A DNA stretch of 64,000 nt, from IMG/VR virus record IMGVR_UViG_3300037421_000080, positions 42,086-106,085 of that record; one strand, written 5' to 3'. Origin of the DNA: a virus (lineage: Duplodnaviria > Heunggongvirae > Uroviricota > Caudoviricetes). Positions 25,925 through 55,774 of this stretch are shown here, piece after piece (positions within the stretch are counted from its first letter, which is position 1; the number at the start of each line of letters is the position of its first letter). A model generated the notes under the pieces. It saw only the letters and a program-made list of their open reading frames with translations, did not search any database and was not told the DNA's origin. A program made the translations under genes and the position numbers.

Positions 25925-25968
25925 GCTAGCCTCCTTCGGCTGTAAAAGGAGAAAGAGAAGTATTCCCA

Positions 25969-26260
25969 TGGACAAAAACTTGTATCAAGGGGGTATCTTA
26001 ACAGGATAACCTTGACAACAAACGGCCCATAGGGAATGTCAAAAAGCGAGGACAAGTTTTTGCAATGGGGTACATTTTAGCAGATAACCCATTACTCCGG
26101 CCCTCACGAATACGCGATCAAATAGTGCGGACAAAAATTGCCGTTGGGTATGCCGGGACTTTCACCCAGCTGTCTTTTTGCAGAAGATAACCAACATGCG
26201 TCCGGCCCACACAAGCTTCGTTGTTTCAAAATAGCACGGACAAAAGTAGATGTCCGGTTT
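25969..26260. repeat. tandem array of ~78-bp imperfect repeat units (3 full + 1 partial) with conserved blocks GGACAA..TTG..GGGTA..GATAACC..CGGCCC
   Basis: Units start about 25972, 26052, 26130 and 26238. Noncoding, immediately 5' of rsr on the minus strand. Confidence 0.5.
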
Positions 26261-34588: not shown

Positions 34589-35688
34589 TATTCACCATAC
34601 CTGTTCTTTCGATCTATTGAACATGCCTCTTCGATCTCGTCCCACACACCTTTTACTATCACCTTGAGCTCGTCCTCTCGACCCTCCTTCTCTATCTTCC
34701 TAGCCAGGCCGTCGATGCTGCCCTCCCATTTGAACTCGGGAGCCTTGATCTTGAGATTATCATCCTTGCTGCCCTCCTCGCCTTTGCTGCTGGGCCAATG
34801 CTTCTCCTCGACTAGCCAGTGGATACTGGTGCCGGTGTTGTCTATCCCATGATTCGGATAGAACCGGATGTCCACAGTTCTGTCCCTACCGAACAGCCTG
34901 GTCTTCTTCACGTGAACCCGAACAACCGAACCAACTACCCTCTTCTTCCCCATGGCCGACTTCTTAATTTTCCATGCCACGGAGAACCAGCATTCGACCA
35001 CGGCGAAGAAGGTCAGGGATCTCCCCCCGTTGCGAGTCTTGGGGTTGAATTGGGATCCAAAGCCAATGTTGTCCCTCGTCTGTTTAATCATCACAAGGAT
35101 ACTGCCGGGGCCTTCTAGGGCATTGTAGCTGGATCTCAGCCTCTGGGAGTTCTCCTTCGCTTTCCCAGCCCCGCCATAGCTTCCTTTCACCTTGCCATCT
35201 TCCTGCATTCTGGCCTTCTTGTTGCTCCTGGTCTTCCTGTCCTCGTTCTCGTCGCTGAGAGCGTCCTCGCTATCCAGCACTTCTATAAACGGCTTACCTT
35301 CGTCGGCCAAGTCTATGATGTGATCATAGAATTCTTGGATGGTCTTGGAGGAGCCTCCCTTCGGTTCTTGCAAGCGATCAGCCAAGCCCCCGAAGAACTT
35401 TCGTATGCTCATGCGAGCACCGCGTTCTGGGTTGTTGTGAATCAACTTATGCTTGGAGAAGGAGGGATTGATCGCGGCTTCTGCTAAAAGCTGGAGTGCT
35501 ATCCACGTTTTCAGCGATTGTGAGTCACCTACCATCAACATATAATCTTTTTTGCTTATGCACCAATCCGGATCCCCCGAGCATGCTAGATTGAACATCC
35601 AAACCCCGCTAGACAGACGGTCAGAGTCCACCTTCTTCTTCCTGGGCATCGCCTTGAGCTGGGCCTTCATCGCTTCGAGTTCGTTCAT
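34588..35688 (-). CDS. RecA-family recombinase-like protein (Sak4/UvsX-like, degenerate Walker A)
   Basis: MLMVGDSQSLKTWIALQLLAEAA (P-loop-like), FIEVLDSEDAL (Walker B-like), GSILVMIKQTRDNIGFGSQFNPKTRNGG..LTFFAVVECWF (RecA L2/strand-like). Confidence 0.4.
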   Translation of the reverse strand: MNELEAMKAQLKAMPRKKKVDSDRLSSGVWMFNLACSGDPDWCISKKDYMLMVGDSQSLKTWIALQLLAEAAINPSFSKHKLIHNNPERGARMSIRKFFGGLADRLQEPKGGSSKTIQEFYDHIIDLADEGKPFIEVLDSEDALSDENEDRKTRSNKKARMQEDGKVKGSYGGAGKAKENSQRLRSSYNALEGPGSILVMIKQTRDNIGFGSQFNPKTRNGGRSLTFFAVVECWFSVAWKIKKSAMGKKRVVGSVVRVHVKKTRLFGRDRTVDIRFYPNHGIDNTGTSIHWLVEEKHWPSSKGEEGSKDDNLKIKAPEFKWEGSIDGLARKIEKEGREDELKVIVKGVWDEIEEACSIDRKNRYGE

Positions 35689-39858: not shown

Positions 39859-40803
39859 TTAGCGCCCTTCAAGTACCTCATAGCATGCTCGCACCAATCC
39901 GCCTCTGCCTGATTGGAAGAAGTCAGCCTCAAAGGAATAGAGGATTTTACAGCACCATTTCGAGTTCCGTCCCGCCTTCAAGATCTCCGTTGTAGCGCAG
40001 GCAAGCACCATCCGCCTCAGCTGCTCCGGGTCTTCTCCCTCCAGTCCTTTGAGGATCTCAGCCACAGAAGACCACGTGCTCTTCTCCCAAAGGAGCGCCT
40101 TCACTAGATCGAAGGCAGCTCTCTTGGTGTCTGTCTTCGCTATGGCATCCAGCTGATCCTGCTCCGTGGGCAGGCCGGAGATTTGGTGAAGGAGGACGAG
40201 GGCCTTGCGAGCGGAGCCTTCGGAGTTCTCGGCGATCAGAGTTGTCACTTTTTCTGGAAGAGTCAGTTGCTCCTCTTCGACTACTCTAGCTAAGATTTGA
40301 AGTATGCTCTTCTCGTTGAGGGGTTTCAGGTTGACAATTGTGCAGCGGCCCCGAACTGCCTTGATGACTTTGTCTGGATCAGTGGTAGCTAGCAGGAAGT
40401 AGACGTGAGAAGGGGTGTTCTCCAGAATATCCAAGAGGGCTTGCTGTGCGAATTGTGCTCTCGACAAAGCCTGGACTTCCTCTAGCAGCCACACTCGACA
40501 CGGCCCTGCGAAGGGCGAAAGAGCCATTCGGGATTCTATTTCCCGAACAGCGGTGATGGGCTTCTCAACCGACCCGCAGTTCACTATCGCAAAGTCAGCA
40601 TCGCTACAGCCCAGCTTCACTCTGATGATTTTGGCCAGGGTCGATTTGCCGACTCCCGTATTTCCAGCGAGCAGCAAGACGTGAGGGAGCTTCCCCTTCT
40701 TCAGCATATTGAAAAGACATTCAACTGCTTCGTTTTGGCCTACCACGTCCTTGAACTTGGTGGGTCGCCACTTGCGATACAGTTCCGTCGCTTCCTTACT
40801 CAT
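39859..40803 (-). CDS. AAA+ clamp loader subunit (DnaX/RFC-small/gp44-like)
   Basis: WRPTKFKDVVGQ..LLLAGNTGVGKSTLAKI (Walker A), clamp-loader box organisation. Confidence 0.7.
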   Translation of the reverse strand: MSKEATELYRKWRPTKFKDVVGQNEAVECLFNMLKKGKLPHVLLLAGNTGVGKSTLAKIIRVKLGCSDADFAIVNCGSVEKPITAVREIESRMALSPFAGPCRVWLLEEVQALSRAQFAQQALLDILENTPSHVYFLLATTDPDKVIKAVRGRCTIVNLKPLNEKSILQILARVVEEEQLTLPEKVTTLIAENSEGSARKALVLLHQISGLPTEQDQLDAIAKTDTKRAAFDLVKALLWEKSTWSSVAEILKGLEGEDPEQLRRMVLACATTEILKAGRNSKWCCKILYSFEADFFQSGRGGLVRACYEVLEGR

Positions 40804-41777: not shown

Positions 41778-41989
41778 TCGCCAAGATAGTCTTCGTCATA
41801 CAGGTGCATACACTGATTCTGCACTATGCCAGGATGCCCTGGAACATCCCGATACTCAACGAACTTGCTCTTATCAGTGTTGTAGGGGTTGTAGACGATC
41901 CAACCTACTGGATATTGATTACCGTGCCAGCTAATCGGCCTCACTTTCTTCCCTTGCTTGGCGAGAGTCAACGCTTCGATGATGTTCAT
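41759..41989 (-). CDS. DUF2829-like protein (Tad2 anti-Thoeris family candidate)
   Basis: N-terminus MNIIEALTLAKQGKKVRPISWHGNQY matches the DUF2829 M.F.EAL.ALK.GKKV.R..W pattern. 76 aa. Confidence 0.4.
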   Translation of the reverse strand: MNIIEALTLAKQGKKVRPISWHGNQYPVGWIVYNPYNTDKSKFVEYRDVPGHPGIVQNQCMHLYDEDYLGEWEVVE

Positions 41990-42357
41990 TTCTTCTCCTT
42001 GAACAAGTACACCTTGGTCTTGATACCCGCCTTCTTCGCCATCTCGATTGTGGACTTTGTTCCAGGGCTAGTTCCCGACCAGAACGCCACGACGCATCCC
42101 TTCCCCTCCATCATCGCTATCATCTCCGCGTTTCTCACTATCCCAGCTTGCTTGCCCTTCTTCCACTCCGGATGGTGGATTGACTGCATAATCCTTCGCT
42201 CGAAGCACCACTTCTCCGCGAGGTTGTCCGCACCCCTGGCCCCTCCGTGGATCACCAGGATCTTTTTCTTGTCTAGCTTGGAGGTCAAATGGTCCAGCGT
42301 CTTGGCGAGGAAGTCGTAGTCATCGAAGGATCTGGAGCCGCAGACGAGAAGTTTCAT
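41986..42357 (-). CDS. DUF2493 / SLOG-family Rossmann protein
   Basis: MKLLVCGSRSF..ILVIHGGARGADNLAEKW..AGIVRNAEMI..VVAFWSG.SPGT...I..AKKAGI matches DUF2493 throughout. Confidence 0.65.
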   Translation of the reverse strand: MKLLVCGSRSFDDYDFLAKTLDHLTSKLDKKKILVIHGGARGADNLAEKWCFERRIMQSIHHPEWKKGKQAGIVRNAEMIAMMEGKGCVVAFWSGTSPGTKSTIEMAKKAGIKTKVYLFKEKK

Positions 42358-43707
42358 CAGAAGCCAAACCCCCGAGCTAGTTCTGCTTTCTTCAAGCGCC
42401 GATGCCCCATTTCAATGTATTCCTCTGATAAGTCTATCCCGATAAACCTCCTACCGCGAGTGATCGCTACAATGCCTGCGGTTGCCGATCCCGAGAATGG
42501 ATCGCAGATAATCGCTGGCACCGGATCACTTGCGTTGCATTTGCAAGTGGGCTCCCATCCAATTGTCTTCGTGGTCGAAACGTGACGTTCGAGGTCACGA
42601 TTGCCGATTACAGAACCTAGGGTAGTTTTGGTTGAAGTTCCGGACCTTTGGAATCTTGGATCCAATTGTCCTATTTTTCTGTTTTTGAGTATCTCTTTGA
42701 TCTTGCTTTCCCTTCCCGGCCGAGTAGGAGTGCGAGTCTTTTCTAGTATTCGCTTCCACGGGGATCCACAGGCTTTGCAAATTCCTTTTTGGCTAGATCC
42801 CGCCAAAATACAGCGCAACGCAAGCTTTTTGGGGAAGGGAGCGAAGTGGGCCTCCTTCAAGCCGCCTTCATGAGACATGTGCCAGACATCACGACAGAAA
42901 CTTTTGTTTTGGTCGTTTGGATCATGCTTGGTTCCTATTCCTCCGGTAATGAACCCATTCTTTTTCAACTCGACCTTCTTGTTGTTGCCGGCACTTCTCT
43001 CCCAATTCCAGTTGCTCTTTGACCTCTCCATAATCGCCACGTGGTCGAAGTAGTATTTAGACTTCTTGGCGAATAGGAATATGTGTTCGTGGGATTTAGT
43101 ACAGCGATTCGTTACGCTCTCAGGCATGGCCCCGGCTTTGCTCCAGATGATTTCTTGGCGGAGGATCCAACCGTCAGCTTGCATTGCGAAAGCAAATCGC
43201 CAAGGAACGCCTATTAGGTTTCCCGATTGTAAATCACCGAGCAAAGGCAGATGATTGTCGTTATCCTCTCCATACCTTCTACCAACATTTCCACTTTGTT
43301 TGGTTCTTTTTGAAGAAGAATTGTAGCTGTCACCGAGATTCACCCAACATGTCCCAGTGGGATGAAGAACTCTACAAATCTCCCGAAATATCTCGACTAG
43401 CTTTTGTACGAATTCTTCGGGAGTTTCTTCTTGGCCCAGTTCAAGTGGTTTATCCGGATGATCGTCGGGGAGATAACTACGAAGACGCCAGTCAATAAGG
43501 GGGACTAGTAACGACACAATTTACACTTTCATCAGGTAAAGTTTTCAACATGTCGATAACGTCCCCCTGGAGCAACCTACTATGCTTCGTTCGGCGCTCT
43601 TTCATGATATCACCTCCTTTCTGGAGCGTAGAGTGCTTGGTCTTCCTTACGATGCCTTTGGTGCCCACACACCCTCCCGAATTTCGTGCCAAGGGGCTTT
43701 GTTCCAC
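42357..43707 (-). pseudogene. DNA N6-/N4-methyltransferase (DPPY, ParB-MTase type) interrupted by a +1/-1 frame change right after the SPPY motif
   Basis: N-piece 43492..43707 ends ..DESVNCVVTSPPY*. Continuation 42357..43517 in another frame carries ...DPFSGSATAGIVAITRGRRFIGIDLSEEY (motif I region). C5 run and TATTGAC at the junction. Confidence 0.55.
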
Positions 43708-45143
43708 CAGTTACCTTCCGGGAAGACCGGTGAGCAGTCCACCTCCGCCTTCAGAGGCACTATTATCCAGGGCCAAGCCTTCGGGAGATCCACCGTCATC
43801 ACCTGCTTAGTCAGATTGAGGAACTCCTGGGTCTCCTCCTCCGGCACGTCGCCCAGCACGCAGTCGTGCACCTGGGACACGATCAGGGACCTCATCTTCC
43901 TCTTCCGCAGTATCTTCTGGATCCGGATGATGCACCAGAGCAGGCAGTGGAATGCTGGGCCCTGCACAAGGTAGTTGAGTATCTGATTCTTGGTGTATAA
44001 TCCTTCTACCACGAACCCAGTTATCAGTCGGAAGTAGCCGTTCTTGCGGTAGTCTTCCAGTACCAGGTCGCTCTTCTCGCGATAGACGTGGAAGTCTTCC
44101 TCAAACTTCAGCTCCATCTTTCTGAGATGGTACTCGAAAGTTCCAGGCAGAGGCGGCGGGGCATCCTTCTTGGTGCTACATGGTCCTAGCTCGGAGATGC
44201 CCTTCTGGGATAGCCACTCTTTTAGTGCTATCCCCTCGACTTCCATCCCAGCATCGTCCAGGCATGCCCAGACTGCCTTGGCCATCTTCTTGTAGTACGA
44301 ACCGTAGAGCTTGGGAAACACGAATCCATCCTTGCCCTTGTACCTCGTTTTTTTAGTGATCTGACTACCCTTGCACAGGAACATCTCCGCTGCCTTGTCG
44401 CGATGGATATCCGCCTTCGGGTCAGAGGCGTAGTGAATCATCTTGGGGTCCTCCCAAATGCAGGCCGCAAGATTCCACTCATGTGAGCCAAAGTCTATTT
44501 CCGCGAATCGACAGCCAGAGCGGGGGATGAATGCTTGCCTTGTTATCTTTCCCTGATCGCTATCTCGACCGGGGCAATTCATCAAATTGGGAGATTTTGA
44601 CGAGCTCCTATAACTACGAGCTCCACCTTTCTCTTCCTCGTCCCCCCCAGTGAGATTGAAGAAGGCATGGACCAGACTATCCACTGCCTCCCGACGGATG
44701 CTCTTGAGATAGTCGCAGGAGGTCTTGTAATCACCAGCCTTCTCCATCTCACGGAGGAAGGGAATGTTCATCTTGGCGAGAGCTGCCTTGTTCACCTGCG
44801 GCCTGGCGCCCTGCTTCAGCTTCCCCTCGCTGTCGTAGCTCTTCTCGGTGTAGCTCTGGCATTTGTAACCGAGGACGTTGAAGAGCATATGTCCCAGCTG
44901 CACGGGGCTGTCCAGGTTGGCCTTCTGCCCGTACACCTTCTGCCACTTGGTGAAGATCTCGTCTTGCTTGAGCTTGTCCTGGAGACGGCGGATTTTGGAT
45001 TCGGTCCAGGATATAGCACGCTCAAGGTACTCTGTGTCGACACGGATTCCGGCTGCTTCTACCTCCGCTAGCACAATCGAGCCTTCGTGAAAGAGCTGAT
45101 ATGCGGTAGGAGAGGCGACGACTTGTTTCATTGTTTTGGCCAC
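43647..45143 (-). CDS. family A DNA polymerase, polymerase (fingers/palm) domain only
   Basis: Motif A EIDFGSHEWNLAA, motif B TRYKGKDGFVFPKLYGSYY, motif C VHDCVLGDV. Confidence 0.75.
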   Translation of the reverse strand: MAKTMKQVVASPTAYQLFHEGSIVLAEVEAAGIRVDTEYLERAISWTESKIRRLQDKLKQDEIFTKWQKVYGQKANLDSPVQLGHMLFNVLGYKCQSYTEKSYDSEGKLKQGARPQVNKAALAKMNIPFLREMEKAGDYKTSCDYLKSIRREAVDSLVHAFFNLTGGDEEEKGGARSYRSSSKSPNLMNCPGRDSDQGKITRQAFIPRSGCRFAEIDFGSHEWNLAACIWEDPKMIHYASDPKADIHRDKAAEMFLCKGSQITKKTRYKGKDGFVFPKLYGSYYKKMAKAVWACLDDAGMEVEGIALKEWLSQKGISELGPCSTKKDAPPPLPGTFEYHLRKMELKFEEDFHVYREKSDLVLEDYRKNGYFRLITGFVVEGLYTKNQILNYLVQGPAFHCLLWCIIRIQKILRKRKMRSLIVSQVHDCVLGDVPEEETQEFLNLTKQVMTVDLPKAWPWIIVPLKAEVDCSPVFPEGNWWNKAPWHEIREGVWAPKAS

Positions 45144-45475
45144 GCCTTAGCCCAAGCCTCGTCCGAAATCGCGTGCGGATCTTTGTCCAACACTACGCTC
45201 TGCAAATCTAGGAAGTGCTGAGTAGTATCCGTAAGGGTCAAATGCCCCTCTCGGATCTCGATATGGAACTTGCCAACTTTCTCTATCTCAATAGTCGCCT
45301 TGAGTCCTTCGAGGATGTGAGTCCGCAGTTTGCTATTCATCTTCTTCCTCTCCACGAGACCTGTTCCCAATATGCCTACTAATCTTTGCGAGTATTTCAT
45401 CATACAGTCCGCGAGGCATGTCAGTAGCGATCTCGACCAGGTCGCCCTTCTCGTTCCACAGCCGCAGAATCCCAA
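45128..45475 (-). CDS. hypothetical protein
   Basis: 115 aa. True start may be internal (MMKYSQ..). Confidence 0.4.
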   Translation of the reverse strand: MGFCGCGTRRATWSRSLLTCLADCMMKYSQRLVGILGTGLVERKKMNSKLRTHILEGLKATIEIEKVGKFHIEIREGHLTLTDTTQHFLDLQSVVLDKDPHAISDEAWAKAWPKQ

Positions 45476-45523
45476 TACAGCTGCCCGGCCAAAGCTTCTT
45501 GAGATCGCGGTAAGGGGCTATCT

Positions 45524-45766
45524 TCACGGCTTCTTCCTCATCTTCACTACCCACTCCGTTGCCTGGTTGTGGTCCATCTTGTCTACGATCGAGCTAAGGA
45601 CTGCAATGGCGCAGGGGCCGCAGAAGTCAACAGGCTCGCACACGTCTTCCATACCGCCAGCAGCATCTGCTCTGCGATCCACTGTGGCGTAAATCGTCTT
45701 CCCTTCGCAGTCCTTGTCGATGCGCTTGCCGCAGCGGTCGCATTCAAATATCTTTCTAGTGCTCAT
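45524..45766 (-). CDS. small zinc-ribbon protein
   Basis: CDRCGK...CGPC. Confidence 0.4.
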   Translation of the reverse strand: MSTRKIFECDRCGKRIDKDCEGKTIYATVDRRADAAGGMEDVCEPVDFCGPCAIAVLSSIVDKMDHNQATEWVVKMRKKP

Positions 45767-46115
45767 CCAGCATCTCCTTGATCCGGGGCGGCTGCCATCC
45801 TTCCGGCTTGAGCCTCTTGCCGTCCTCCCGAATTGGACCGGTGGTTTTCAACATGTTCGTCCGGTGGACTTCGTTGAAGAATGGCTCCAGGTCGATGCCA
45901 AAAGATACGGCCGTGCCAAACACGACGTAGAGGAGATCGCACATGCCGTCAATGGCTTCGACTAGATCGCCGTTCTTGATAGCGTTCACAGTCTCGATTG
46001 CTTCCTCATGAATCAGATTGGCTCTGAGTTGGGGAAAGCGGATTCCGGGAGATTTGCCTATCTCGCAATTCGTCGCTGCGTGGAATTCCTCGACCTGCTT
46101 TTGCATCGGATTCAT
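45756..46115 (-). CDS. MazG-like all-alpha NTP pyrophosphohydrolase
   Basis: Start set at ATG 46115 (ATGA overlap). EEAIE..D..EA.D...DLLYVV pattern. Confidence 0.5.
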   Translation of the reverse strand: MNPMQKQVEEFHAATNCEIGKSPGIRFPQLRANLIHEEAIETVNAIKNGDLVEAIDGMCDLLYVVFGTAVSFGIDLEPFFNEVHRTNMLKTTGPIREDGKRLKPEGWQPPRIKEMLDEH

Positions 46116-46366
46116 GAGTTCTCCCTGATCCACTTTTCTACTTCGTCCGTTACTTCGAGATATTCTCGGCTCGGGGTCATTGTAATTTCCTGACCAGGAA
46201 CATAGGCTGCCCACACTTTGTCTCGTAGAACTTTTGGAAGTTTGAACCAATGCTCTTTGCATCCCCACATGGCAGGCGGACATTGCTTAGGACATCCAGG
46301 CCAGTGACAATGGTGATTCCGGAACTGCTTCTGCTTGCGGACGTAGTTGGCCTTGGATTCTTTCAC
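46112..46366 (-). CDS. small Cys/His zinc-binding protein
   Basis: GTG start. HHCHWPGCPKQC..C.EH. Confidence 0.4.
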   Translation of the reverse strand: MKESKANYVRKQKQFRNHHCHWPGCPKQCPPAMWGCKEHWFKLPKVLRDKVWAAYVPGQEITMTPSREYLEVTDEVEKWIRENS

Positions 46367-46835
46367 TTATGATATTCCTTCTCTTCGTCCTCGGCCCATG
46401 CCCTAGCCTCCACTTCCGCCTCTTCCCTCGTCTCGTACTTCCCGGAGCGGGCACCTTTACTAGTTGCAGCGTCCAAAGGACCACAGGGCTGTTTGCTCAG
46501 TACCCTGCCGCCCACTCCGGGGATTCACGTCACTGAGCGTATAGCTTCTCTGCGACGGTGACAATCCGAACAGTTACAATAGTAGTCATGCTCCATCTCC
46601 ACATCACCTCCTCAAAATCACCTATGTACGCGGTTGACGCTTTCCCTAACTCTTTGTTTTTCAAGCTAGTTACTACAATTTTACGCTCGTATTAGGTAGT
46701 ATCCAGCCTATCCTTGGTATGGTGGTAGGAAGAGGTGGTGGGTGGCATAGTCCATACAGTCCCGTTGTAGTATGGTGAACTGGGAGTCAATCTGGGCTCT
46801 GGTGGTCCAGTCGCTACTTGGGGCTGTGAGCTTCA

Positions 46836-48083
46836 TCATGTTTTCGCTAGGTCTTTCGGGAAAAGGTCAATTCCCATCTTCTTCGCCTGCCTCACCCCCA
46901 CGAACCATTCCAGCAAGGCATCGGTTCCGCAGTACATCAGCATCTGATCCAGCGGCACCTCTCGTATCCGGTTATGCTCATTCGACCCACTAGACTTGAA
47001 GAAGGGCTTCATCCTCCCTTTACCCGCCACATAGCCCAGGTTCACAAATGTCTGGAACTCAAGACTCGCCACGCCCATCCTGTTGTCCAGCACATGGGCT
47101 CCAATCATCCCACACCACACCCAGTTCTTCACCCGCACTCCCTGCCGGAGCAGCCAGCGGATTTCGTGTTTGATGTTGAAGCCGATCTTGGGCACGTCGG
47201 AGCGGATGAAGTCCAGCGTCGCCTCTATCGCCCGCCCCTGCCACGGATAGGCTATCGAGGTCCGCCCGTCGCTTATGGCACAGCACAGGATGAAGGAGTC
47301 AGCTCTATCCGGCTTCAGGGGGCTGTTCTCGATGTCCCACGCCAGCGGCCTGCCGCTCTCCATCATCTCCTGGATCGCGTCTGCTGCCTCGTCGTCCTTG
47401 TAGATCCGCCTGACCTTGGATGGATAGTCGGGCAACGCTTTCCAGGGCTTCTCCATCTTCTTGCAGGCAGCCTCCAGGTGCCTCTCGAACAGGAGCTTCC
47501 TTACCTCATTCTGCTTCTTGCTGCCATAGTCGTCTCGGAGGATGTAGGAGGGATGCCAGGTGGGACACACCCAGGCATTGATCTGCTGACACGGTATCCG
47601 CCAGCCATCCCAGCGGGAAATCATGCCCACGTTGCTGCCCCAGAGCCAGCCCAGGATTGACTTCACTGCCGAGCCGCCCAGGGGGATGATTACGTTGGGC
47701 TTTAGCTCCTGGATGGTTTTTACAACATTGGGCCTGCAAAAACTGATCTCTTTATCAGTGGGGGTGCGGTTCTTGCCTTCGCGTGTCATGGGTCGGCAGA
47801 TGCAACTGTTGTATAGCCAGCAATCTCGGTCCATGTCCACATCGAATTTCTCTAACGTCTCTTTGAGGAGCTGCCCAGACTTGCCAATGAAGGGACGGTT
47901 CTGTTCAGATTCGTTGTACCCAGGGGCTTCGCCACATATAAGTATTCGTTTATACCCCTCCCCAAAGACTTTCATCTTCGGGGACTTGCAGTGACGATAG
48001 AGTCCGCACGAGCCACACTGAGCAACTAGCGGAATTGTGACCCTGCCAGAATCAGCGAGGGGCTGGGGGAAGAAGCCTCTCAT
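46836..48083 (-). CDS. DNA polymerase N-terminal module: UDG family-4-like domain fused to 3'-5' exonuclease domain
   Basis: ILICGEAPGYNESEQNRPFIGKSGQLL (UDG-4 motif) then LAWDIEN (Exo I, DxE). Ends where the pol-domain gene begins. Confidence 0.6.
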   Translation of the reverse strand: MRGFFPQPLADSGRVTIPLVAQCGSCGLYRHCKSPKMKVFGEGYKRILICGEAPGYNESEQNRPFIGKSGQLLKETLEKFDVDMDRDCWLYNSCICRPMTREGKNRTPTDKEISFCRPNVVKTIQELKPNVIIPLGGSAVKSILGWLWGSNVGMISRWDGWRIPCQQINAWVCPTWHPSYILRDDYGSKKQNEVRKLLFERHLEAACKKMEKPWKALPDYPSKVRRIYKDDEAADAIQEMMESGRPLAWDIENSPLKPDRADSFILCCAISDGRTSIAYPWQGRAIEATLDFIRSDVPKIGFNIKHEIRWLLRQGVRVKNWVWCGMIGAHVLDNRMGVASLEFQTFVNLGYVAGKGRMKPFFKSSGSNEHNRIREVPLDQMLMYCGTDALLEWFVGVRQAKKMGIDLFPKDLAKT

Positions 48084-48292
48084 TAATCATGTTCCCAATC
48101 GCCGAGCTTTGCGTCTGCTGTCGAATAGACATAATAGCAGCCATTGACAACATACCTCGGAACCCCTCTGGATCTCTGATTCCTCGTCGGTTGCAGGCAT
48201 TCCAATCGTATCGGCGCTTTTCCGGTTTGCTTTTCCCAAGCTTCCCATACAGTTAGAGCTGGCCTTTTTGTTGGCTTCGTAATGTGCGTCAC
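48083..48292 (-). CDS. small hypothetical protein
   Basis: 69 aa. Confidence 0.35.
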   Translation of the reverse strand: MTHITKPTKRPALTVWEAWEKQTGKAPIRLECLQPTRNQRSRGVPRYVVNGCYYVYSTADAKLGDWEHD

Positions 48293-48657
48293 ACCAGGCC
48301 CACTCCGTCCAATTTCAACAACTCAAGAAGCCGCTTGTTATCCCGTTTCAACGTCTGGATTTGCTGCTCCTGAGTCCGCAGGCACCGGATCAAGTCGGTG
48401 AGTTCGATAGGTAAGAAATCCATCGAGGAAGTGAGTGCGAATATCTGATTAGACTCGTCCGGGATGTAGCGACCCTTGAGGGAGATATACTGCTTCCGCT
48501 TCCCGCTTGAATCATAATCCCCAGTCTCCAGCTCTAGGCAAAGGCCGTACATGAGATGAGGAATCAAGCTACCGATGGCAGGCTCTGGCCAGTCCCTTCC
48601 GCTAGGAGGCATATCTATGCGGATCCGTGCCGTGACTGTGCTGGCGATGATGTCCAT
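48289..48657 (-). CDS. hypothetical protein
   Basis: 122 aa. Confidence 0.45.
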   Translation of the reverse strand: MDIIASTVTARIRIDMPPSGRDWPEPAIGSLIPHLMYGLCLELETGDYDSSGKRKQYISLKGRYIPDESNQIFALTSSMDFLPIELTDLIRCLRTQEQQIQTLKRDNKRLLELLKLDGVGLV

Positions 48658-48658
48658 C

Positions 48659-48865
48659 TCACTCCCCGATATGCTCGAACTCCATCAGCATCCGCCTGAT
48701 CTCCATCTCGCTCTTCTCAGCTTCCTTGAGCAGCCAGCGGGCGGAGTCGGAAAGGAACTTCACCTCGGCGCAAATAGAGCAGTATCGGTTCTTACAGCGG
48801 AAATCATCGAAGATCAGGCTCTCCAGATAGTCCCTCTCATCATCGGTCATCCGATTCCTCCTCAT
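48659..48865 (-). CDS. small hypothetical protein (CxxC)
   Basis: 68 aa. Confidence 0.35.
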   Translation of the reverse strand: MRRNRMTDDERDYLESLIFDDFRCKNRYCSICAEVKFLSDSARWLLKEAEKSEMEIRRMLMEFEHIGE

Positions 48866-49946
48866 TCTCTTGTTCCGGCTCCTCTGTCTGGGCTCTTTCC
48901 TCTTCCTCAGCCTGCTCCTCAGGTCGTGTCAGCACGGCCACCCAGGCGAACTTCCCCGCTCCGTTCACCTTGATCTTGTCCTGGCTGATCTCGCATTGGG
49001 GATACTCCCGAGCCAGCTTGATCAGCAGGTTCGGAGCAATCACGAAGTCTATCGGAGGACCGGCGTACTTGGCTCGCTTAGGCTCTGTATGGGAGCCTGT
49101 GATCCCAATGCCCTCCACCACTACTCGATCCGGTCGCAGCTTCACCGTGACGTAGTTGAACTCGCCGTTCTCCGAGGAGAAGATATTGGCTCGCTCCGTC
49201 GCATCTACCAGCTTGTTGGGCAGATGGCTCGCAACCCCTTTCATTGAGAACATCTCGGTCAGCTCGGGGAAGTCGTCGATGAACCGTCGGCAGGAGAGCA
49301 TGACACCTTCTGCACTCCGGAAGTGCAGCCAGCCGTCCGTCACGGCCATCTCCACAGGGGCTATCTTATCCAGCTCCGAGATGGACTTGCTCCGCACCAG
49401 CACCGATTCCTCTACGCCCGTCTTCAGGGTCCAGCGACAAGCCTGGTAGTTATCGCAGGTCTCTACCCACTTGGGATGGACGTGGACACAGGTCAGACCT
49501 GCACCGTGCTTCTCGTCGGGCCGGGCGCACTGGCTGACGACTCGGATAGCCTCCGCGAACTCGGGGTGGAGGGGTTTCCACTCCTGCGGCTTGTCCACAG
49601 CCCGGACCAGATCGAGGAGGGAGGTCTCCTGCTCTAGCAATAGGGAAGACTTCTTCCCGCCCTTGCCGTTGAGGATCAGCTTATCCTTCCTCATTTCCAG
49701 CGTCAATTCAGCATCCTCCAGGCGTCGCAGGAGCTCTGATAGGGGACGGGCCGAGACAGCTCCCGTGAACTCCGCTGAGAGCATGCTAGGTCCTCTACAG
49801 GCCGTTTCCTCGTTGCAGGTGTAGACCTTCCCACCTCGGAAGACGTAGCACGAGCTCTGCTGGGTCTTGTCCTTGTTAGTTAGGCCGGGCTGCATCACTT
49901 CGAGATGGCGGAGGAACTCCTCGCGGTTCACTTTCAGAGTGGTCAT
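48840..49946 (-). CDS. dnaN: DnaN-like beta sliding clamp with acidic C-terminal tail
   Basis: N-terminus MTTLKVNREEFLRHLEVMQPGL resembles the DnaN start. ..EMAVTDGWLHFRS corresponds to the ..ATDGHRLA motif. Three-domain length. Confidence 0.55.
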   Translation of the reverse strand: MTTLKVNREEFLRHLEVMQPGLTNKDKTQQSSCYVFRGGKVYTCNEETACRGPSMLSAEFTGAVSARPLSELLRRLEDAELTLEMRKDKLILNGKGGKKSSLLLEQETSLLDLVRAVDKPQEWKPLHPEFAEAIRVVSQCARPDEKHGAGLTCVHVHPKWVETCDNYQACRWTLKTGVEESVLVRSKSISELDKIAPVEMAVTDGWLHFRSAEGVMLSCRRFIDDFPELTEMFSMKGVASHLPNKLVDATERANIFSSENGEFNYVTVKLRPDRVVVEGIGITGSHTEPKRAKYAGPPIDFVIAPNLLIKLAREYPQCEISQDKIKVNGAGKFAWVAVLTRPEEQAEEEERAQTEEPEQENEEESDDR

Positions 49947-50106
49947 CAGCTTTCCTCAAGTCGGTTCTTTCGCTGCGGTTGATCGTAACGCTTCGGGGAG
50001 CCTGGATGCCTATCCGTATCTTGTTGCGGTCGATGTCCGTGATGGTGACAACGATGTTGTCGCCAATGCAGATGGATTCACCAAGTTTGCGAGTTAGGAC
50101 CAGCAT
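49876..50106 (-). CDS. csrA: carbon storage regulator CsrA homolog
   Basis: MLVLTRKLGESICIGDNIVVTITDIDRNKIRIGIQAPRSVTINRSE is near-consensus CsrA. Confidence 0.8.
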   Translation of the reverse strand: MLVLTRKLGESICIGDNIVVTITDIDRNKIRIGIQAPRSVTINRSERTDLRKADDHSESEPRGVPPPSRSDAARPN

Positions 50107-50134
50107 GTCTTCTCCTTCCGTGGTTAAAAGCTCC

Positions 50135-50734: not shown

Positions 50735-50980
50735 TTAGCACACCTGTTCTTGGAGTGTTCCCCAGCACTCACCGCAGAGTAGCCAGCAGTTCGAGCAGCG
50801 GAAGGCATTCATCTCAGGGGAGGAGGCGCCTACTCCAACTTCTGTCCCAGTGTTCGGGCAGATCTGGCTGACAGGAACCGGATTCTGTAGCTGGCGAGTG
50901 AATGGCTTGTGGCAGCGGCAGCAGGTGGTTTGCTCAGCCATTGAGTAGCTCCTTGATCTGACTTCTGATCTCTTTTCCAT
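50735..50980 (-). CDS. small Cys-rich protein
   Basis: CCRCHK..C...CSNCWLLCGEC. Confidence 0.35.
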   Translation of the reverse strand: MEKRSEVRSRSYSMAEQTTCCRCHKPFTRQLQNPVPVSQICPNTGTEVGVGASSPEMNAFRCSNCWLLCGECWGTLQEQVC

Positions 50981-51458
50981 CTATTGGTTTCAATTTGAAT
51001 TTCTGGGCGATTCTCTTGATCTTGCTCTCCCGACCCTTGAGCCAGATCTCATTCTGGTGACTGTTTCGCTTCTTCCTTCTCCTCGCTAGCTCCTCTGGAG
51101 AGCAATCCAGCAGGAACAACTTTAGCTTTACACACTCGATGTTCTGGACTACATCAAGAAAGCTCTGACCGAAGAGACGATCCCCCTCGAACAATACCGT
51201 CCAATCAGGGTTGTGTTTGGCCCAATGATGGAGAACCTTCACTGCATCGGGCTGAACAGACATAGATAGCCGATCCGTCCCAGCGAAGACATTCTCTCCC
51301 CGGTAGTCGCCCAGGACGAACACCTTGGCATCTTCTATGCGGCCGTAGACTAGGGAGCCGATCTTCTCATGCTTGATAGGGCCGAGGAGCTCGATGAGAG
51401 AACGCATCAGCGTGGTCTTGCCGCAGCCAGGATTGCCTCCGATGCCGATCACGATCAT
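50934..51458 (-). CDS. P-loop kinase-like protein (Walker A GGNPGCGKTT; nucleotide/DNA-base kinase candidate)
   Basis: 174 aa, N-terminal P-loop, small kinase-fold size. First gene of the enzyme cassette. Confidence 0.55.
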   Translation of the reverse strand: MIVIGIGGNPGCGKTTLMRSLIELLGPIKHEKIGSLVYGRIEDAKVFVLGDYRGENVFAGTDRLSMSVQPDAVKVLHHWAKHNPDWTVLFEGDRLFGQSFLDVVQNIECVKLKLFLLDCSPEELARRRKKRNSHQNEIWLKGRESKIKRIAQKFKLKPIDGKEIRSQIKELLNG

Positions 51459-52390
51459 CTGGTGAGATCCCCCATCCGTATTTTCTTGGCTCGGGCTAGC
51501 TCCTCAGCAGCAGAGCCGCAGGAAACCATGCCTTGTCTGTAATAACAAACAAGGCTGATCCGTTCAAAGGCTCCCTCTATCCCAATCAGTGGGGTGTTCC
51601 CATGCCACTCATGGACATCCGCCAAGAGCAGACTTCGTGTCCTCATATCCACCGCTACTCGGTACTTCGGAAAGCAGAGGTAACAGCCAGAGTAGTGCCC
51701 TGCCCGGAGAGCCGTCATAACCCCGAAGCCCTCGGTCAGATCACCCTTGTCTTTATGCAAAGCTGTGACCCAATTCTTGTTCACTGTGATTGTGGTGAAG
51801 GCGGTCTTATGAATCACGAAGTCTGGAGAGGTCTGCTTCACTACCTTCAGCTGGGCAGCATAGCGGCCTGGAACGTTCTTCTTGAATGCCTCATCTATTG
51901 CTCGGATCAAGGGCATGGCAGCTTGGAACTTCTCCGGTTGGTATAGATTGAAGGCTGTCAGGCGACAGTAGGGAATGCGAGGATAGCGATCATAGAAGCC
52001 GATGATGCCACTATGGACCGCTTGAGCGTAGTTCGTGTTGGAGACAGTGCCATCTTGTTTCATCGGTCGAAGTCTGGTCCCATCCATGACAGCAGCCTTT
52101 TTGGCTCGATTCCCTTTCCGCTCAGAGACCTTCTCTGGAATGATCCCAGCAGCCATCCCTCTGTTCTCACTGGTGCTTGCTGCTTTCCGTAGACCGGGGA
52201 AGGCAGCCTTGCAAGCAGGAGCAGGGAGAATGTTATGGAGATGGATGAGGAGAACATCACCATTGGGCTTGAGGACTTTCACATCGTCCTCTGCGATGAG
52301 CCGATCGTAGTGAGATTCGTCGAGGAAGGTGCCTGCCAGTTTATCTATTTCCTCATCAGGCAGAGCGTGATTCAACTTTATCGTTTTCAT
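51455..52390 (-). CDS. hypothetical protein with HxD...H...R pattern (possible 2OG-Fe(II)/TET-JBP-like dioxygenase)
   Basis: ALHKDKGD (HxD) then HEWHGNTP and a distal R (RISLVCYYR). Weak, by-eye only. Confidence 0.3.
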   Translation of the reverse strand: MKTIKLNHALPDEEIDKLAGTFLDESHYDRLIAEDDVKVLKPNGDVLLIHLHNILPAPACKAAFPGLRKAASTSENRGMAAGIIPEKVSERKGNRAKKAAVMDGTRLRPMKQDGTVSNTNYAQAVHSGIIGFYDRYPRIPYCRLTAFNLYQPEKFQAAMPLIRAIDEAFKKNVPGRYAAQLKVVKQTSPDFVIHKTAFTTITVNKNWVTALHKDKGDLTEGFGVMTALRAGHYSGCYLCFPKYRVAVDMRTRSLLLADVHEWHGNTPLIGIEGAFERISLVCYYRQGMVSCGSAAEELARAKKIRMGDLTR

Positions 52391-53051
52391 TCTTCAATTC
52401 CCGATATGCTCGCTTCAACACTTTGAACACAGTGTCTGTCAACGTCTTGGTGCCATAGTGCCCACCCAAGTATTTTACTATCTTCTCGAAGGCCCCAATA
52501 TTGTCAGACGAAAGGAACAGCTGGATCATGCGCACATGAGAGGGCTGTAGATCAGGTAATGACTCTGGAGTAAGCTCCCCATCTCCCTCTACATCCAGTT
52601 CCAGATCATCGGGGTTCAGTCCTCCCTCAGCTACCTTGGAGAAGAGCGAGGCTAGTGCCTTGTTCCCCGTTGTAACATCCCTGATGAGGCTAGCGAACTT
52701 CCCCTTGTTCGTTGTAGCCATTGTACCTACAGAGTCATAGGAGGCGAGTAGCTTCTTGGCCTCTTCCTCTGTCACGTCCAGGACTGCGACGTGTACCTTC
52801 TGGTTGGGAGGGTACTCCTCCTGGCGTAGATGGCCGTCGATCAGCATGAATGTTCCGTCAGGCAGCTCGCGAACGATCTGGATACCTGCAATACCGATTT
52901 CGGAGAGGAGGCCACGGAAGGCTTCTCGCTGATCTTCCGGATGTTCTCTCCAGTTCCATGGGCAGGCTCTCAGCTCTCCCGCCTTGACGCGGACCACCTT
53001 CTTGATGCGATCCCGAATCATCATTTTGTGTTCCTTTGGAATGGGAGGCAT
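52356..53051 (-). CDS. ParB/Srx-like nuclease-domain protein
   Basis: FMLIDGHLRQEE ParB N-domain motif. Confidence 0.5.
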   Translation of the reverse strand: MPPIPKEHKMMIRDRIKKVVRVKAGELRACPWNWREHPEDQREAFRGLLSEIGIAGIQIVRELPDGTFMLIDGHLRQEEYPPNQKVHVAVLDVTEEEAKKLLASYDSVGTMATTNKGKFASLIRDVTTGNKALASLFSKVAEGGLNPDDLELDVEGDGELTPESLPDLQPSHVRMIQLFLSSDNIGAFEKIVKYLGGHYGTKTLTDTVFKVLKRAYRELKNENDKVESRSA

Positions 53052-53869
53052 TTACCTAGTTTGTCCGCCAAAGGCCCCCATCCAACTAAAGCATGTTTCA
53101 GCTCTCTAGTATCTATCCCAATGGGGTAGTGGCCGTGTAGATATGATTTCATCTTACAAAGTATGGTCTCTGCTTCCTGTGTTCCACAAGGCCGATCAAA
53201 ACTGGGGGGGGCTAATCTGTGTTGGAATTGTTTATTGAGCCAGCCCACAGTTTCTTTGAGAACCCATTCAGGTTTAACTATTTTTGCTCCCTCTGCTGGC
53301 TCTTTGTAGAAGTTCAGGTCGTCAATGCTGAACTCAATCGAGACACCCATCACTCGCTCTAGCAAATCTCCCATCTTGAACGCAATCCAGGGGCCGTAGA
53401 GAGGCCAGCCTAGTATCCACTTCTTTAGTGTAACAAAATCCCCCGAATCCTCCAAGGACTTTATAGCTAGGCCGGGAATCGGGAACTTCTTTCTCATCCA
53501 ATTGATAGAATGTTGTGAAGCATTTCCTCGGAAGTGCCGTCTCTCTCTTCCCCTCGGCCACTTCTCATCTTGGAACTTCTGGACAGTGTCCCAAAAGTCC
53601 TCAGAATCCGCGATTTTGGAGGCGACACCAGCATGGTAGCACATGCTATAGGCCAATAGCCAGCGACGGAGTAGCTTAGGCCCGAGCTCCGCCTTGTAGA
53701 GGATGACATACACTGGATCCAGGTCTAGTGTATCCAGCAAGGCGTTGCCAAATTCCAATACTGTCATGCGCTTGTTTTCAAAGAACATCAAGGAGCTTCC
53801 TGGCTGCAAATCCGGCAGCAATGGTGCCAAGCTTCCCAGCACCAGTGACAGCCCAGGTTCTGGGTCCAA
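53021..53869 (-). CDS. hypothetical enzyme-like protein in cassette (aGPT-pyrophosphorylase-like role is conjecture)
   Basis: 282 aa, no motif recognised. Confidence 0.45.
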   Translation of the reverse strand: MDPEPGLSLVLGSLAPLLPDLQPGSSLMFFENKRMTVLEFGNALLDTLDLDPVYVILYKAELGPKLLRRWLLAYSMCYHAGVASKIADSEDFWDTVQKFQDEKWPRGRERRHFRGNASQHSINWMRKKFPIPGLAIKSLEDSGDFVTLKKWILGWPLYGPWIAFKMGDLLERVMGVSIEFSIDDLNFYKEPAEGAKIVKPEWVLKETVGWLNKQFQHRLAPPSFDRPCGTQEAETILCKMKSYLHGHYPIGIDTRELKHALVGWGPLADKLGKCLPFQRNTK

Positions 53870-54602
53870 TTGATTCCATCAGGCAGGGATCACTGCCATT
53901 CTTCTTGCAGTAAGGGCGGAGGCCTAGCTTGGTTTTCAACAGCGGTAGGGGAGCAGGCAATGCTTCTTGACAGCGATCAAGGCACTGCTTTGTTCTCACT
54001 TGGGTCCAGTTGGCATGGAGGAGTGCGGAGCCATCCCCTATCCAAATCTCCTGAGGGCCTTGCTGGTGGGCAACGATCTGCTTGTACGGAGCCCAGGGCT
54101 TTATAAATGGTGAAATCTGGCCTGACAGCCTGAATGATACACCCTGCTTGGGCGTAGCTTTGATCGCTTTGGCCAGCTCTCCAATCCAGCATCCAGTGGC
54201 TAGAACCAACAGCCTTCCTTGGTACTCCGAGCCATCGGTGCAATACACAACTGGGTGTTCCTCTGATGTTTTGATCTTGCTTGCCTTGGCCTTTGTCTTG
54301 GGAATAGAAACTACCTTGTCTGTATCTACTCTCCAGACAGTTTCTTGGATCTGCTTGGGCCAGATGGTGAACTTCCTCTCAATCAATCCCCAGACATCAT
54401 CCAGCAGCTCCATTGCTGATTCAGACTCTTCTTTCTGCATGCTTGCAAACCAAGATGGCTTGAGGTGCCCTCCTGAAGGTCCAGTACCTGCCATGGGGCG
54501 ACCGTCGTCTAGCAACAATACCTTGGCTCTACTCTTTCTCAAGGCCAGTGTAATGGTGGAACCAATGATCCCCCCACCAACCACGATAGCATCGTACATC
54601 AT
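53778..54602 (-). CDS. FAD-dependent oxidoreductase (DAO/glycine-oxidase-like, short)
   Basis: N-terminal YDAIVVGGGIIGSTITLAL dinucleotide-binding motif. Confidence 0.65.
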   Translation of the reverse strand: MMYDAIVVGGGIIGSTITLALRKSRAKVLLLDDGRPMAGTGPSGGHLKPSWFASMQKEESESAMELLDDVWGLIERKFTIWPKQIQETVWRVDTDKVVSIPKTKAKASKIKTSEEHPVVYCTDGSEYQGRLLVLATGCWIGELAKAIKATPKQGVSFRLSGQISPFIKPWAPYKQIVAHQQGPQEIWIGDGSALLHANWTQVRTKQCLDRCQEALPAPLPLLKTKLGLRPYCKKNGSDPCLMESIGPRTWAVTGAGKLGTIAAGFAARKLLDVL

Positions 54603-54607
54603 TATTC

Positions 54608-55774
54608 TCAGATGAAGCGGTCGAACTCGCCCACTGATACTATCGGCATCCCAGCCTCCTGCTTCCTCTTGATCTCGATGGCTTCCAGATTTGTATTGTG
54701 CCTCAAGCAGTGGAAGTTGCAGTGTTTGGAAGGATCAAGATACTCCATCACCCGCTGACGCAGTGCACCATCCCAGGCCTCCTTGAAACTCTGGTTGACT
54801 ATACCCCCTACCTTCATCCTCTCCTTGCCACGCCAGTAGGGGCAGACGAATATCCCGGTTGGAGTAACAGTTGTTCTCAGATGGGTTGATGGGCATTTGC
54901 AATAGTCTTTGGATTGAGGCACCTCAACTCCATCCAGGGAGGGTTGTAGGTTGATCGCACGGATCACCTTGAACTTGTCTGTCTCCAGAGAGTCTAGGGA
55001 GGCAACTTCCCGAGCAGCCTGCTCCATCAAGTGCTTTGGGTGCTTCACCAAAGCATGATCCACGCCTTCCCGAAACTGGTAGGAGGGCTTGACCTCAAAG
55101 TAGTCGCACCCGATCTCCCTGGCCAACAGGGCTGCGGCATAGATCTCCCCGATGTTGCTCTCAATATCCCTGCCATCTGCCGGAGTCTGAATCAAGAAGG
55201 AGAAGCCCAGCTTGCCCTTCTTCTTGGCAGCCAGCAACCTCATATTGCTGACAACTTTGTCAAACTTGCTCTTCCCAGTTCCTCCCTTGGTTGGCCTGAG
55301 TACGCTAAACATCCGCTCCGTAGCAGCATCCATCGAGACACGAGTCCACTGTGCATACTCGGAGATAGGCCCCAAATATCTGTCGATGAAGCTGCCATTT
55401 GTTGTGATCCCGATGTGCACATCATTCTTCCCCAGCAGCTCGATAAGCTCTCCGGACTTTCGGTGGGCCAGGGGCTCACCTCCACCAATCAAAATAACTG
55501 CTTTCACTCCGCAGTCAATGAATTCTTGTCCTAGCTTCATCAAGCGTTCATCGGAGAAGCGGTTACCTAGAGCGATCACATCTTCGCTAATGCAACCAGG
55601 GCAGGCCAAATCACAAATCGCTGTTGGGTCTAGCTCCACAACAAACGGTGAATCGTTTCCCTCTTCCCAATCTGTATTGCTGATTCTCTCCAAGACTGGG
55701 AGCTGGTAGAGCTTGTTATTGAGCTTCATGATATCAGACATTTTGCTCTTTCTCCTCCTTTGATTGTCAGCCAC
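54608..55774 (-). CDS. radical SAM enzyme (with C-terminal Cys-rich auxiliary region)
   Basis: CDLACPGC (CxxxCxxC) and VILIGGGEPL glycine-rich SAM motif. C-terminal CKCP...CPYW...CNFHC cysteines. Confidence 0.8.
   Translation of the reverse strand: MADNQRRRKSKMSDIMKLNNKLYQLPVLERISNTDWEEGNDSPFVVELDPTAICDLACPGCISEDVIALGNRFSDERLMKLGQEFIDCGVKAVILIGGGEPLAHRKSGELIELLGKNDVHIGITTNGSFIDRYLGPISEYAQWTRVSMDAATERMFSVLRPTKGGTGKSKFDKVVSNMRLLAAKKKGKLGFSFLIQTPADGRDIESNIGEIYAAALLAREIGCDYFEVKPSYQFREGVDHALVKHPKHLMEQAAREVASLDSLETDKFKVIRAINLQPSLDGVEVPQSKDYCKCPSTHLRTTVTPTGIFVCPYWRGKERMKVGGIVNQSFKEAWDGALRQRVMEYLDPSKHCNFHCLRHNTNLEAIEIKRKQEAGMPIVSVGEFDRFI

Follow-up and report, generated by a model that had tools for sequence, protein, structure and literature searches.

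We found that the 64,000-nt stretch of phage DNA analysed here (the window; positions 42,086 to 106,085 of IMG/VR record IMGVR_UViG_3300037421_000080, Caudoviricetes) encodes a family A DNA polymerase (PolA) in two pieces. One gene (46836..48083, minus strand; positions are those of the window) encodes a 415-aa protein with an N-terminal uracil-DNA glycosylase (UDG) domain of family 4 and a C-terminal DEDDy-type 3'-5' proofreading exonuclease. The other (43647..45131, minus strand) encodes a 494-aa polymerase with thumb, palm, fingers and motifs A, B and C. The two are separated by 1692 nt holding eight open reading frames (ORFs), and all genes in this part of the window lie on the minus strand. 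We think it likely that the two proteins are the subunits of a UDG-PolA replicase that arose by gene fission and operates together with a beta clamp and a clamp loader encoded by the phage itself. A preliminary description of this DNA had already proposed a split PolA of this kind, with a UDG and exonuclease gene, a polymerase gene and other genes between them; hidden Markov models (HMMs), end-to-end mapping on fused relatives and conservation all bear it out. The motifs it had read (GEAPG, HPS, the Exo I DxE and polymerase motifs A, B and C) are likewise backed by HMMs and family alignments.

The 415-aa protein matches the Pfam UDG family over residues 45-195 (E=2.5e-23). This core (47499..47951, minus strand) carries both signatures of family-4 enzymes: motif A, GE(A/G)PG, is present as G51-E-A-P-G55, and motif B as H177-P-S. 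The top PDB sequence matches of the protein are family-4 UDGs (T. thermophilus UDG 1ui0, 6.3e-19); a further match is to the UDG domain in the cryo-EM structure of the phiLo UDG-PolA (9qhs, 1.2e-13). Across 117 stand-alone homologues, E52 is kept in 112, H177 in 114 and P178 in all, and F65 is conserved too. Six cysteines (C23, C26, C32, C88, C96 and C116), which lie within the UDG core or just ahead of it, are each found in 116 or 117 of these homologues. C96 and C116 align with the CRP cysteine and the downstream cysteine of 1ui0, and the CxxC pair is at most 3 residues from the CxxC of 1ui0; these we take to be the cysteine ligands of the 4Fe-4S cluster in 1ui0. The four-cysteine ligand pattern is therefore present, with C23-x2-C26 (plus C32), C96 and C116 essentially invariant. 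Judged by its conserved motifs, the UDG is apparently active.

The exonuclease domain of the same protein (residues 227-390; 46914..47405, minus strand) matches Pfam DNA_pol_A_exo1 (E=7.7e-9; 36 bits against a cut-off of 23.6). It has the three motifs of a PolA-type DEDDy exonuclease: Exo I D250-x-E252, Exo II N303...E307 and Exo III Y384...D388. Conservation is high at each position, with D250 and E252 in at least 95% of the 117 homologues, N303 in 106, E307 in 116, Y384 in 114 and D388 in all. The acidic residue of Exo II is a glutamate rather than an aspartate, a conservative variant that is shared by the whole family. The exonuclease thus looks intact, as predicted from its conserved catalytic residues. 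The start at 48083 is backed by N-terminal conservation with relatives, and the JGI start call (379 aa) would remove the conserved CxxC.

The polymerase half was scored as the longer, 498-aa ORF that begins at an alternative GTG (43647..45143, minus strand). This ORF matches Pfam DNA_pol_A at E=8.1e-36 (124.2 bits against a cut-off of 34.3) and carries motif A (D..E), motif B (R..K..F/Y..YG) and motif C (HD) of family A polymerases. In GTG numbering, D217, E222, R267, K271, Y280, H426 and D427 are invariant in 36 homologues, and G281 is kept in at least 90% of them. The large fragments of Bst and Taq Pol I match this half at ~1e-16, from residue ~183 of their chains on. By the domain limits that we assume for Bst, the N-terminus of the half falls within ~10 residues of the canonical exo/pol boundary. 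The preliminary description had placed the start at the GTG. We now prefer ATG 45131, which is most likely the true start because it forms an ATGA overlap with the stop codon of the preceding ORF, because JGI calls the same start on an identical contig, and because it gives the M-K-x N-terminus common to relatives.

Together the two halves account for one complete polymerase. On the single DNA polymerase profile of PHROGs (phrog_17), the exo half covers positions 477-827 and the pol half positions 834-1234; on a fused relative of 867 aa (P0098), they cover residues 3-435 and 431-855. The break is clean and lies at the exo/pol domain boundary, with nothing missing and nothing duplicated. This is the arrangement of a split exo/pol PolA, with separate genes broken at the domain boundary, and not the one polypeptide of a single-chain UDG-PolA.

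Scans of IMG/VR with either half as query found no relative; relatives came only from big protein and metagenome collections. Against GenBank phages, tblastn gave distant matches only (at most 27% identity), all of them to single-chain enzymes. In the protein search, the pol half found ~95 clusters of stand-alone polymerases of 445-510 aa at 34-46% identity, three of them with inteins, and, at a greater distance (~30% identity), exo+pol proteins and fused UDG+exo+pol proteins of 820-870 aa. The exo half found hundreds of stand-alone UDG+exo proteins of ~400 aa. A HMMER scan of 1.84 billion cluster representatives (50%-identity clusters) with the UDG-exo query returned 1086 at E<=1e-30; among the best 150 of these, ~128 are stand-alone, 18 have insertions (inteins where checked) and 2 are fused. 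The metagenome scan found at least 566 related contig stretches from several projects, including Tara Oceans and the 'Hain' sample series. GTDB hits gave no usable host: they fall on contigs of metagenome-assembled genomes from mutually inconsistent phyla, which are probably mis-binned phage contigs.

Six split relatives were fetched with their genomic context, and in all six the order is the UDG-exo gene, variable genes and then the pol gene. Downstream of pol, four have a clamp-loader gene and a RecA-like gene, and one has the clamp loader without RecA within the available DNA; the contig of the sixth stops just past pol. One fused relative has the same module with a single polymerase gene. 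We then mapped an HMM of each half on six-frame translations of ~110 loci. Both junction ends were visible in 89 of them (88 tabulated loci and L007). The halves are split in 85 loci, counting the window and a few near-duplicates, and fused in 4. In 40 of the split loci the genes overlap or lie up to 40 nt apart (13 with an exact ATGA overlap), in 8 they are 41-300 nt apart, and in 37 they are more than 300 nt apart (median 1302 nt, maximum 6033 nt). In all 85, pol lies downstream of the exo gene on the same strand. The split is thus a trait of the clade. The fission is old and clade-wide.

In a neighbour-joining tree of the pol halves, four fused sequences (L007, L104, L098 and L102) branch outside the split ones, and the adjacent and insert-bearing states are interleaved. 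Every member of the window's own sub-clade has an insert, with differing contents. Two other fused proteins, P0240 and P0314, score like members of the clade on both HMMs, which suggests that fused and split states have interconverted more than once. Such interconversion would be workable only if the halves act together, and it therefore argues that they do. Among 64 non-redundant split loci, mean pairwise identity is 0.457 for the UDG, 0.429 for the exonuclease and 0.449 for the polymerase, and identity between pairs of loci in one half is correlated with that in the other (r=0.62). UDG, exonuclease and polymerase thus look to be under comparable constraint and co-inherited.

A structure model of the two proteins points in the same direction. 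We ran AlphaFold2 on the concatenated halves with a 142-row alignment; besides the joined sequence of the window, it contained 12 natural fusions, 64 rows for the exo half alone and 65 for the pol half alone. The model reached a pLDDT of 93.6 and a pTM of 0.91, and only residues 418-422 (the artificial junction) and 579-584 fell below a pLDDT of 50; from the single sequence, without an alignment, the pLDDT was 33. In Foldseek, the exonuclease and polymerase domains of the model superimpose on the Bst and Klenow large fragments with a TM-score of 0.79-0.82, normalised by the target, over ~675 columns. The best match over all three domains is the predicted single-chain PolA of Vibrio phage HCMJ (884 aa; TM 0.73/0.75, 934 columns). 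Motura, which is named as a relative of the PaBG group (PMC7412058), is also among the whole-length matches. The model is consistent with reassembly of the halves into the classical architecture, with the new termini exposed to solvent, in line with the prediction of Czernecki et al. for split T7-like PolAs (PMC10201439).

A clamp and a single clamp-loader subunit flank the split PolA in the window. The clamp gene (48840..49946, minus strand) encodes a divergent homologue of the beta sliding clamp DnaN, which was not detected by Pfam or PHROGs. When searched against the PDB as a single sequence it gave weak matches only, all of them to beta clamps; a profile of seven syntenic homologues gave a match at E=3.6e-7, and its top 15 PDB matches are all DnaN. 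Relatives likewise have a clamp homologue upstream of the exo gene. The clamp-loader gene (39859..40803, minus strand) encodes an AAA+ subunit like Pol III gamma/delta' (Pfam DNA_pol3_delta2 4.6e-20, with AAA and clamp-loader lid domains; phrog_5846 9e-54), and its place downstream of pol is conserved by synteny in L001 and L003-L007.

At the C-terminus of the exo subunit is a conserved peptide (46836..46880, minus strand) that may bear on the clamp. Its positions are Q399 (114/117), x, K/R, x, L/M403, G404 (90/117), V/I, x and L/I, and in stand-alone UDG-exo proteins it mostly runs straight into the stop codon. The consensus, Q-x-[KR]-x-[LM]-G-[VI]-x-[LI]-COOH, resembles the QLxLxL beta-clamp-binding motif; the window's own C-terminus reads ...KKMGIDLFPKDLAKT. 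A similar G-V-x-hydrophobic element is kept internally in fused relatives, so the peptide may be a mere structural linker.

The slot between the halves in the window (45128..46839, minus strand) is filled with same-strand ORFs. According to the ORF list, these are, from the exo gene onwards, ORFs of 43 aa (46708..46839), whose start overlaps the exo stop (ACATGATG), and of 44 aa (46530..46664) and 50 aa (46363..46515); a Cys/His-rich ORF of 84 aa (46112..46366; phrog_18063, 3.9e-26); a MazG-like nucleoside-triphosphate pyrophosphohydrolase of 125 aa (45756..46133; Pfam PRA-PH 5.4e-16, phrog_671 1.6e-33); an ORF of 80 aa with a CxxC...CxxC pattern (45524..45766); one of 73 aa (45333..45554); and one of 70 aa (45128..45340), whose stop overlaps the pol ATG (ATGA). 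The earlier reading of a MazG gene with three small zinc-binding protein genes therefore holds for MazG, but only two of the ORFs, those of 84 and 80 aa, are visibly Cys-rich and zinc-ribbon-like. The other five had no match in Pfam or PHROGs (where scanned) or in related loci. BLASTP places homologues of the MazG-like protein in the exo-pol gap of four relatives (L043, L091, L008 and L022) and elsewhere in two (L041 and L098).

The cargo is probably co-expressed with the replicase because its genes are co-oriented and tightly packed and because at least the first and last ORFs overlap the stop and start codons of the polymerase halves. The gap surroundings contain no notable flanking direct or inverted repeats. 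The window has AAAACA(A)TGA at two sites only, the exo stop and the pol start, and the pattern was picked after both had been seen; insert-bearing relatives have no comparable flanking repeats, and this microhomology is probably due to chance.

The gaps of relatives are also nearly all coding and on the same strand. We scanned 106 ORFs of 60 aa or more, taken from 39 of 41 analysed gaps, with Pfam and found genes for nucleotide metabolism (ThyX in 5, MazG in 4, dCTP deaminase in 3, dATP/dGTP pyrophosphohydrolase in 2, pieces of class II ribonucleotide reductase in 2 and ThyA in 1), DNA methyltransferases (N6_N4 in 3, D12 in 3 and MT-A70 in 1), CsrA (2) and homing-endonuclease modules (HNH_3 in 4, NUMOD3 in 2, NUMOD4 in 1 and GIY-YIG in 1). 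MazG-type families are among the commonest cargo. Thus, the variable cargo is enriched for functions in the dNTP pool and DNA modification, plus selfish endonucleases, and the latter could help to account for its turnover. Inteins, some with LAGLIDADG or HNH endonucleases, are also present in the pol half of P0047, P0050 and P0062, in the exo half of P0229, P0235, P0245, P0246 and P0272, and in L011. Selfish elements concentrate at the replicase locus, as inteins in the halves and as free-standing HNH and GIY-YIG genes in the gap.

An assembly chimera or a pseudogene in decay would be an extremely improbable explanation of the arrangement. The source is a metagenomic contig and the neighbouring methyltransferase gene has a frameshift, but two contigs from other samples agree with the window at 100% identity. 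One from another JGI sample (L009) covers 44977..50122 and so includes the clamp gene, the exo gene with its stop, the entire gap and the first ~150 bases of pol; one from a third sample (L010) covers 46835..48396, the exo gene and its upstream flank. The exo protein is also on record in JGI data, where the longest contig is 136,935 bp. In addition, both ORFs are intact with conserved catalytic residues, and the same architecture recurs in the 85 related loci from many environments. No assembly rearrangement was found. We also consider it very improbable that the halves are rejoined after transcription or translation, be it through a self-splicing intron, through split inteins or through frameshifting or bypassing by the ribosome. 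Such an explanation has precedents: the PolA genes of SPO1-type phages carry introns, as cited in PMC10580990, 'fractured genes' with split inteins and homing endonucleases between the halves are known (PMC2677866, PMC6892783), and relatives of the window contain inteins and HNH and GIY-YIG genes. The preliminary description had suggested a check for an intein or intron. Rfam detects no intron in 43000..48600 even at E<=1, nor any other RNA family, and neither protein has a Pfam intein domain. With its eight co-oriented ORFs, the gap is dense in protein-coding sequence and has no group I or II intron RNA between would-be exons. HMM coverage (residues 1-402 of 415 for the exo half, positions 4-462 of the profile for the pol half) leaves no space for intein halves, and the broken ends bear no intein N- and C-fragments. 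Dozens of divergent relatives also conserve a separate stop and start for the two halves.

A more serious alternative, though still an unlikely one, is that the two genes encode independent enzymes: a stand-alone UDG-exonuclease serving as a repair or editing factor, and an exonuclease-less polymerase that is tethered by the clamp only. The genes are separate and lie up to 6 kb apart in relatives, and the conserved hydrophobic C-terminal peptide of the exo protein could bind another partner, for example the clamp. Against this, co-occurrence, order and orientation are strict in 85/85 split loci, fused members lie within the diversity of the clade, and the joined model is confident and Klenow-like. 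PolAs are also reported to need the exo domain for stability, and AlphaFold2 predicts that the split halves of T7-like PolAs reassemble (PMC10201439). We therefore favour the two-subunit replicase, and several points weigh on the other side of that judgement. Binding between the two proteins is a prediction, and the case for UDG activity is drawn from conserved motifs. The modelled chain was joined artificially and its alignment contained only 12 natural fusion rows, so the packing between domains is partly imposed. The neighbour-joining tree is too crude to count events of fission, fusion and insertion or to give them a direction. Counts of promoter-like and terminator-like sites are at or below chance and lend no support to co-transcription. 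Finally, the ~360 nt directly after the exo gene (46476..46836) contain weak 43-44-aa ORFs only, have no JGI gene call and include the region's only sigma-70-like site (46705..46678); this stretch could hold an internal promoter or a regulatory element that separates expression of the halves.

Based on these results, we propose a model for the two-subunit UDG-PolA replicase. The gene of a replicative family A polymerase has undergone fission at the exo/pol domain boundary, giving one polypeptide with the UDG and the proofreading exonuclease (subunit 1, 415 aa) and another with the polymerase (subunit 2, 494 aa). We hypothesize that the halves reassemble non-covalently into the three-domain architecture of single-chain UDG-PolAs. 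In this complex the polymerase would extend the primer, the exonuclease would edit it, and the UDG would check the template ahead of the active site for uracil. The enzyme would probably work with the phage's own beta clamp and clamp loader. The junction left by the fission has repeatedly captured other genes, here a MazG-like gene and seven small ORFs, and trimming of the dNTP pool is the probable role of the MazG-like enzyme. A more specific version, which joins these elements but which we regard as quite doubtful, is that fission was no mere neutral event but made a two-subunit, clamp-tethered replicase like Pol III alpha/epsilon, in which the exo C-terminal peptide tethers the editing/UDG module to the phage clamp and the junction serves as a conserved, translationally coupled cargo slot. 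If this were true, the lineage would plug genes for the dNTP pool and DNA modification (MazG, ThyX, dCTP deaminase, ribonucleotide reductase, methylases) into its replicase operon.

Other genes of the window belong to replication and DNA modification. A DnaB-like helicase is encoded at 60986..62389 and a RecA/UvsX-like protein at 34588..35688. A group of minus-strand genes a short way upstream of the replicase encodes P-loop nucleotide kinase 3 (50934..51458), a Tet/JBP 2OG-Fe(II) dioxygenase that PHROGs mislabels as TGT-like (51455..52390), an amino-acid:DNA transferase, ADDT (53021..53869), an FAD-dependent oxidoreductase (53778..54602) and a radical SAM enzyme (54608..55774). These genes (50934..55774) are likely a DNA base-hypermodification cluster, which would fit the published association of active-UDG PolAs with modified-base phages. 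The equivalent region of relatives contains 7-deazaguanine genes (QueC, FolE, QueE) or Tet_JBP.

A CsrA homologue (49876..50106, minus strand; Pfam CsrA 1.4e-21) adjoins the clamp gene, and CsrA genes recur in relatives, two of them inside the exo-pol gap. Downstream of pol is a YspA/SLOG-family (YAcAr) protein (41986..42357, minus strand), likewise conserved in L003 and L004. Between this gene and pol lies an N6/N4 DNA methyltransferase gene (42357..43707, minus strand) that is frameshifted right after SPPY (...AGT CCC CCT TAT TGA C TGG CGT...), with an N-terminal piece of 71 aa (43492..43707) and a body of 386 aa (42357..43517) in different frames. This site is covered by no independent contig, and the frameshift may stem from an error in sequencing, mark a pseudogene or be a +1 shift programmed at TAT-TGA. 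Farther away is a Ro60-like protein (24275..25975, minus strand; TROVE 3.9e-48 and Ro60 vWA 5.7e-62) with a homologue in L003.

We believe that this locus matters for several reasons. Fission of PolA has been known since 2023 from a small group of T7-like cyanophages; here it characterizes a much larger, environmentally widespread clade in which the UDG travels with the proofreader. The clade offers a natural system for studying how a PolA with three activities (synthesis, editing and scanning of the template for uracil) holds together without a covalent link, how an editing/UDG module can be exchanged or regulated separately, and why the junction of a split essential gene becomes a hot spot for nucleotide-metabolism cargo and homing endonucleases. 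Annotation pipelines label the halves 'uracil-DNA glycosylase' and 'DNA polymerase I'. Surveys of viral diversity or replication that are based on PolA therefore misread these phages as having an exonuclease-less polymerase.

The components of the system are already known: UDG-PolA, exo/pol fission and PolA with a clamp. The preliminary description had called a split PolA with a UDG-like N-domain known in some phages but uncommon. UDG-PolA fusions and exo/pol fission are indeed known separately; the literature that we covered, which is incomplete and no proof of absence, describes neither a UDG-exo | pol fission, nor its scale in uncultured phages, nor a recurrent cargo slot. With at least 566 contig stretches and 1086 clusters, the arrangement is also not uncommon in metagenomes.

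The closest known enzymes are the single-chain UDG-PolAs, which according to Czernecki et al. 2023 (PMC10201439) have a dead UDG in N4-like phages and an intact UDG in SPO1, SP-10 and SP-15. They share the domain order of family-4 UDG, 3'-5' exonuclease and polymerase with the window, where UDG motifs A and B are retained. The UDG-PolAs of YerA41 and phiLo have been solved by cryo-EM; in the fused enzyme the UDG lies over the fingers, where it binds and scans the 5' template strand in front of the active site, and it excises dU; the catalytic residues of phiLo are E53, P55 and H178 (Missoury et al. 2025, 10.1101/2025.03.26.645540). These correspond to E52, P54 and H177 of the window. SPO1- and SP15-type phages carry out base hypermodification, and the window phage likewise carries what is likely such a module. 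Jumbo phages of the PaBG type have a fused UDG-exo-pol enzyme paired with homologues of Pol III beta and gamma (PMC7412058), like the clamp and loader of the window; PolA with beta and gamma has also been noted for Ma-LMM01 and RSL1 (PMC3201878). What sets the window enzyme apart from all of these is its coding by a pair of genes: the break falls between exo and pol, and 1.7 kb of other genes separates the two. SP15-like enzymes, with large inserts 1 and 2 and a C-terminal domain of ~80 aa, measure 1142-1306 aa against 415 + 494 aa in the window, a size at which the window enzyme would seem to lack both, and no enzyme of a cultured phage is more than 27% identical to the window proteins. The N4-like UDG-PolA (cluster 17 of PMC10201439) has an N-terminal family-4 UDG-like domain as in the window, but it is a single chain whose UDG has lost its catalytic residues and beta-hairpin, whereas in the window the enzyme is split and E52 and H177 are retained.

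Among split polymerases, the S-SBP1-like T7-type cyanophages have an exo/pol fission that was reported as the first in PolAs (PMC10201439). Their adjacent, overlapping genes are also seen in many relatives of the window. They belong to another PolA lineage, whose T7-like cluster has adjacent genes made by frameshift; the nearest fused relatives of the window enzyme are UDG-PolAs, although no formal clustering with T7-like enzymes was made. In addition, the exo subunit of the window carries the UDG, its clade is much larger and more diverse, cargo of 0.04-6 kb has entered the junction in about half of the 85 split loci examined, and processivity would involve a clamp and clamp loader instead of a thioredoxin-type mechanism. 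OM43 phages of the MEP401 type also have PolA in two genes with an inserted ORF (PMC10580990), but these are Zobellviridae-related podophages with one small unknown ORF, and no UDG domain or variable multi-gene cargo was reported for them. Fractured genes and split-intein polymerases (PMC2677866; PolB of phage MIJ3, PMC6892783) resemble the window in that an essential replication gene is in two pieces, sometimes with a homing endonuclease between them; their halves carry split-intein segments and are joined by trans-splicing, whereas the window halves have no such segments. Finally, the bacterial Pol III core keeps its polymerase (alpha) and DEDD proofreader (epsilon) as separate proteins that work with a beta clamp and loader. 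As Pol III belongs to family C and the window enzyme to family A, this likeness is by analogy only and would represent functional convergence at most.

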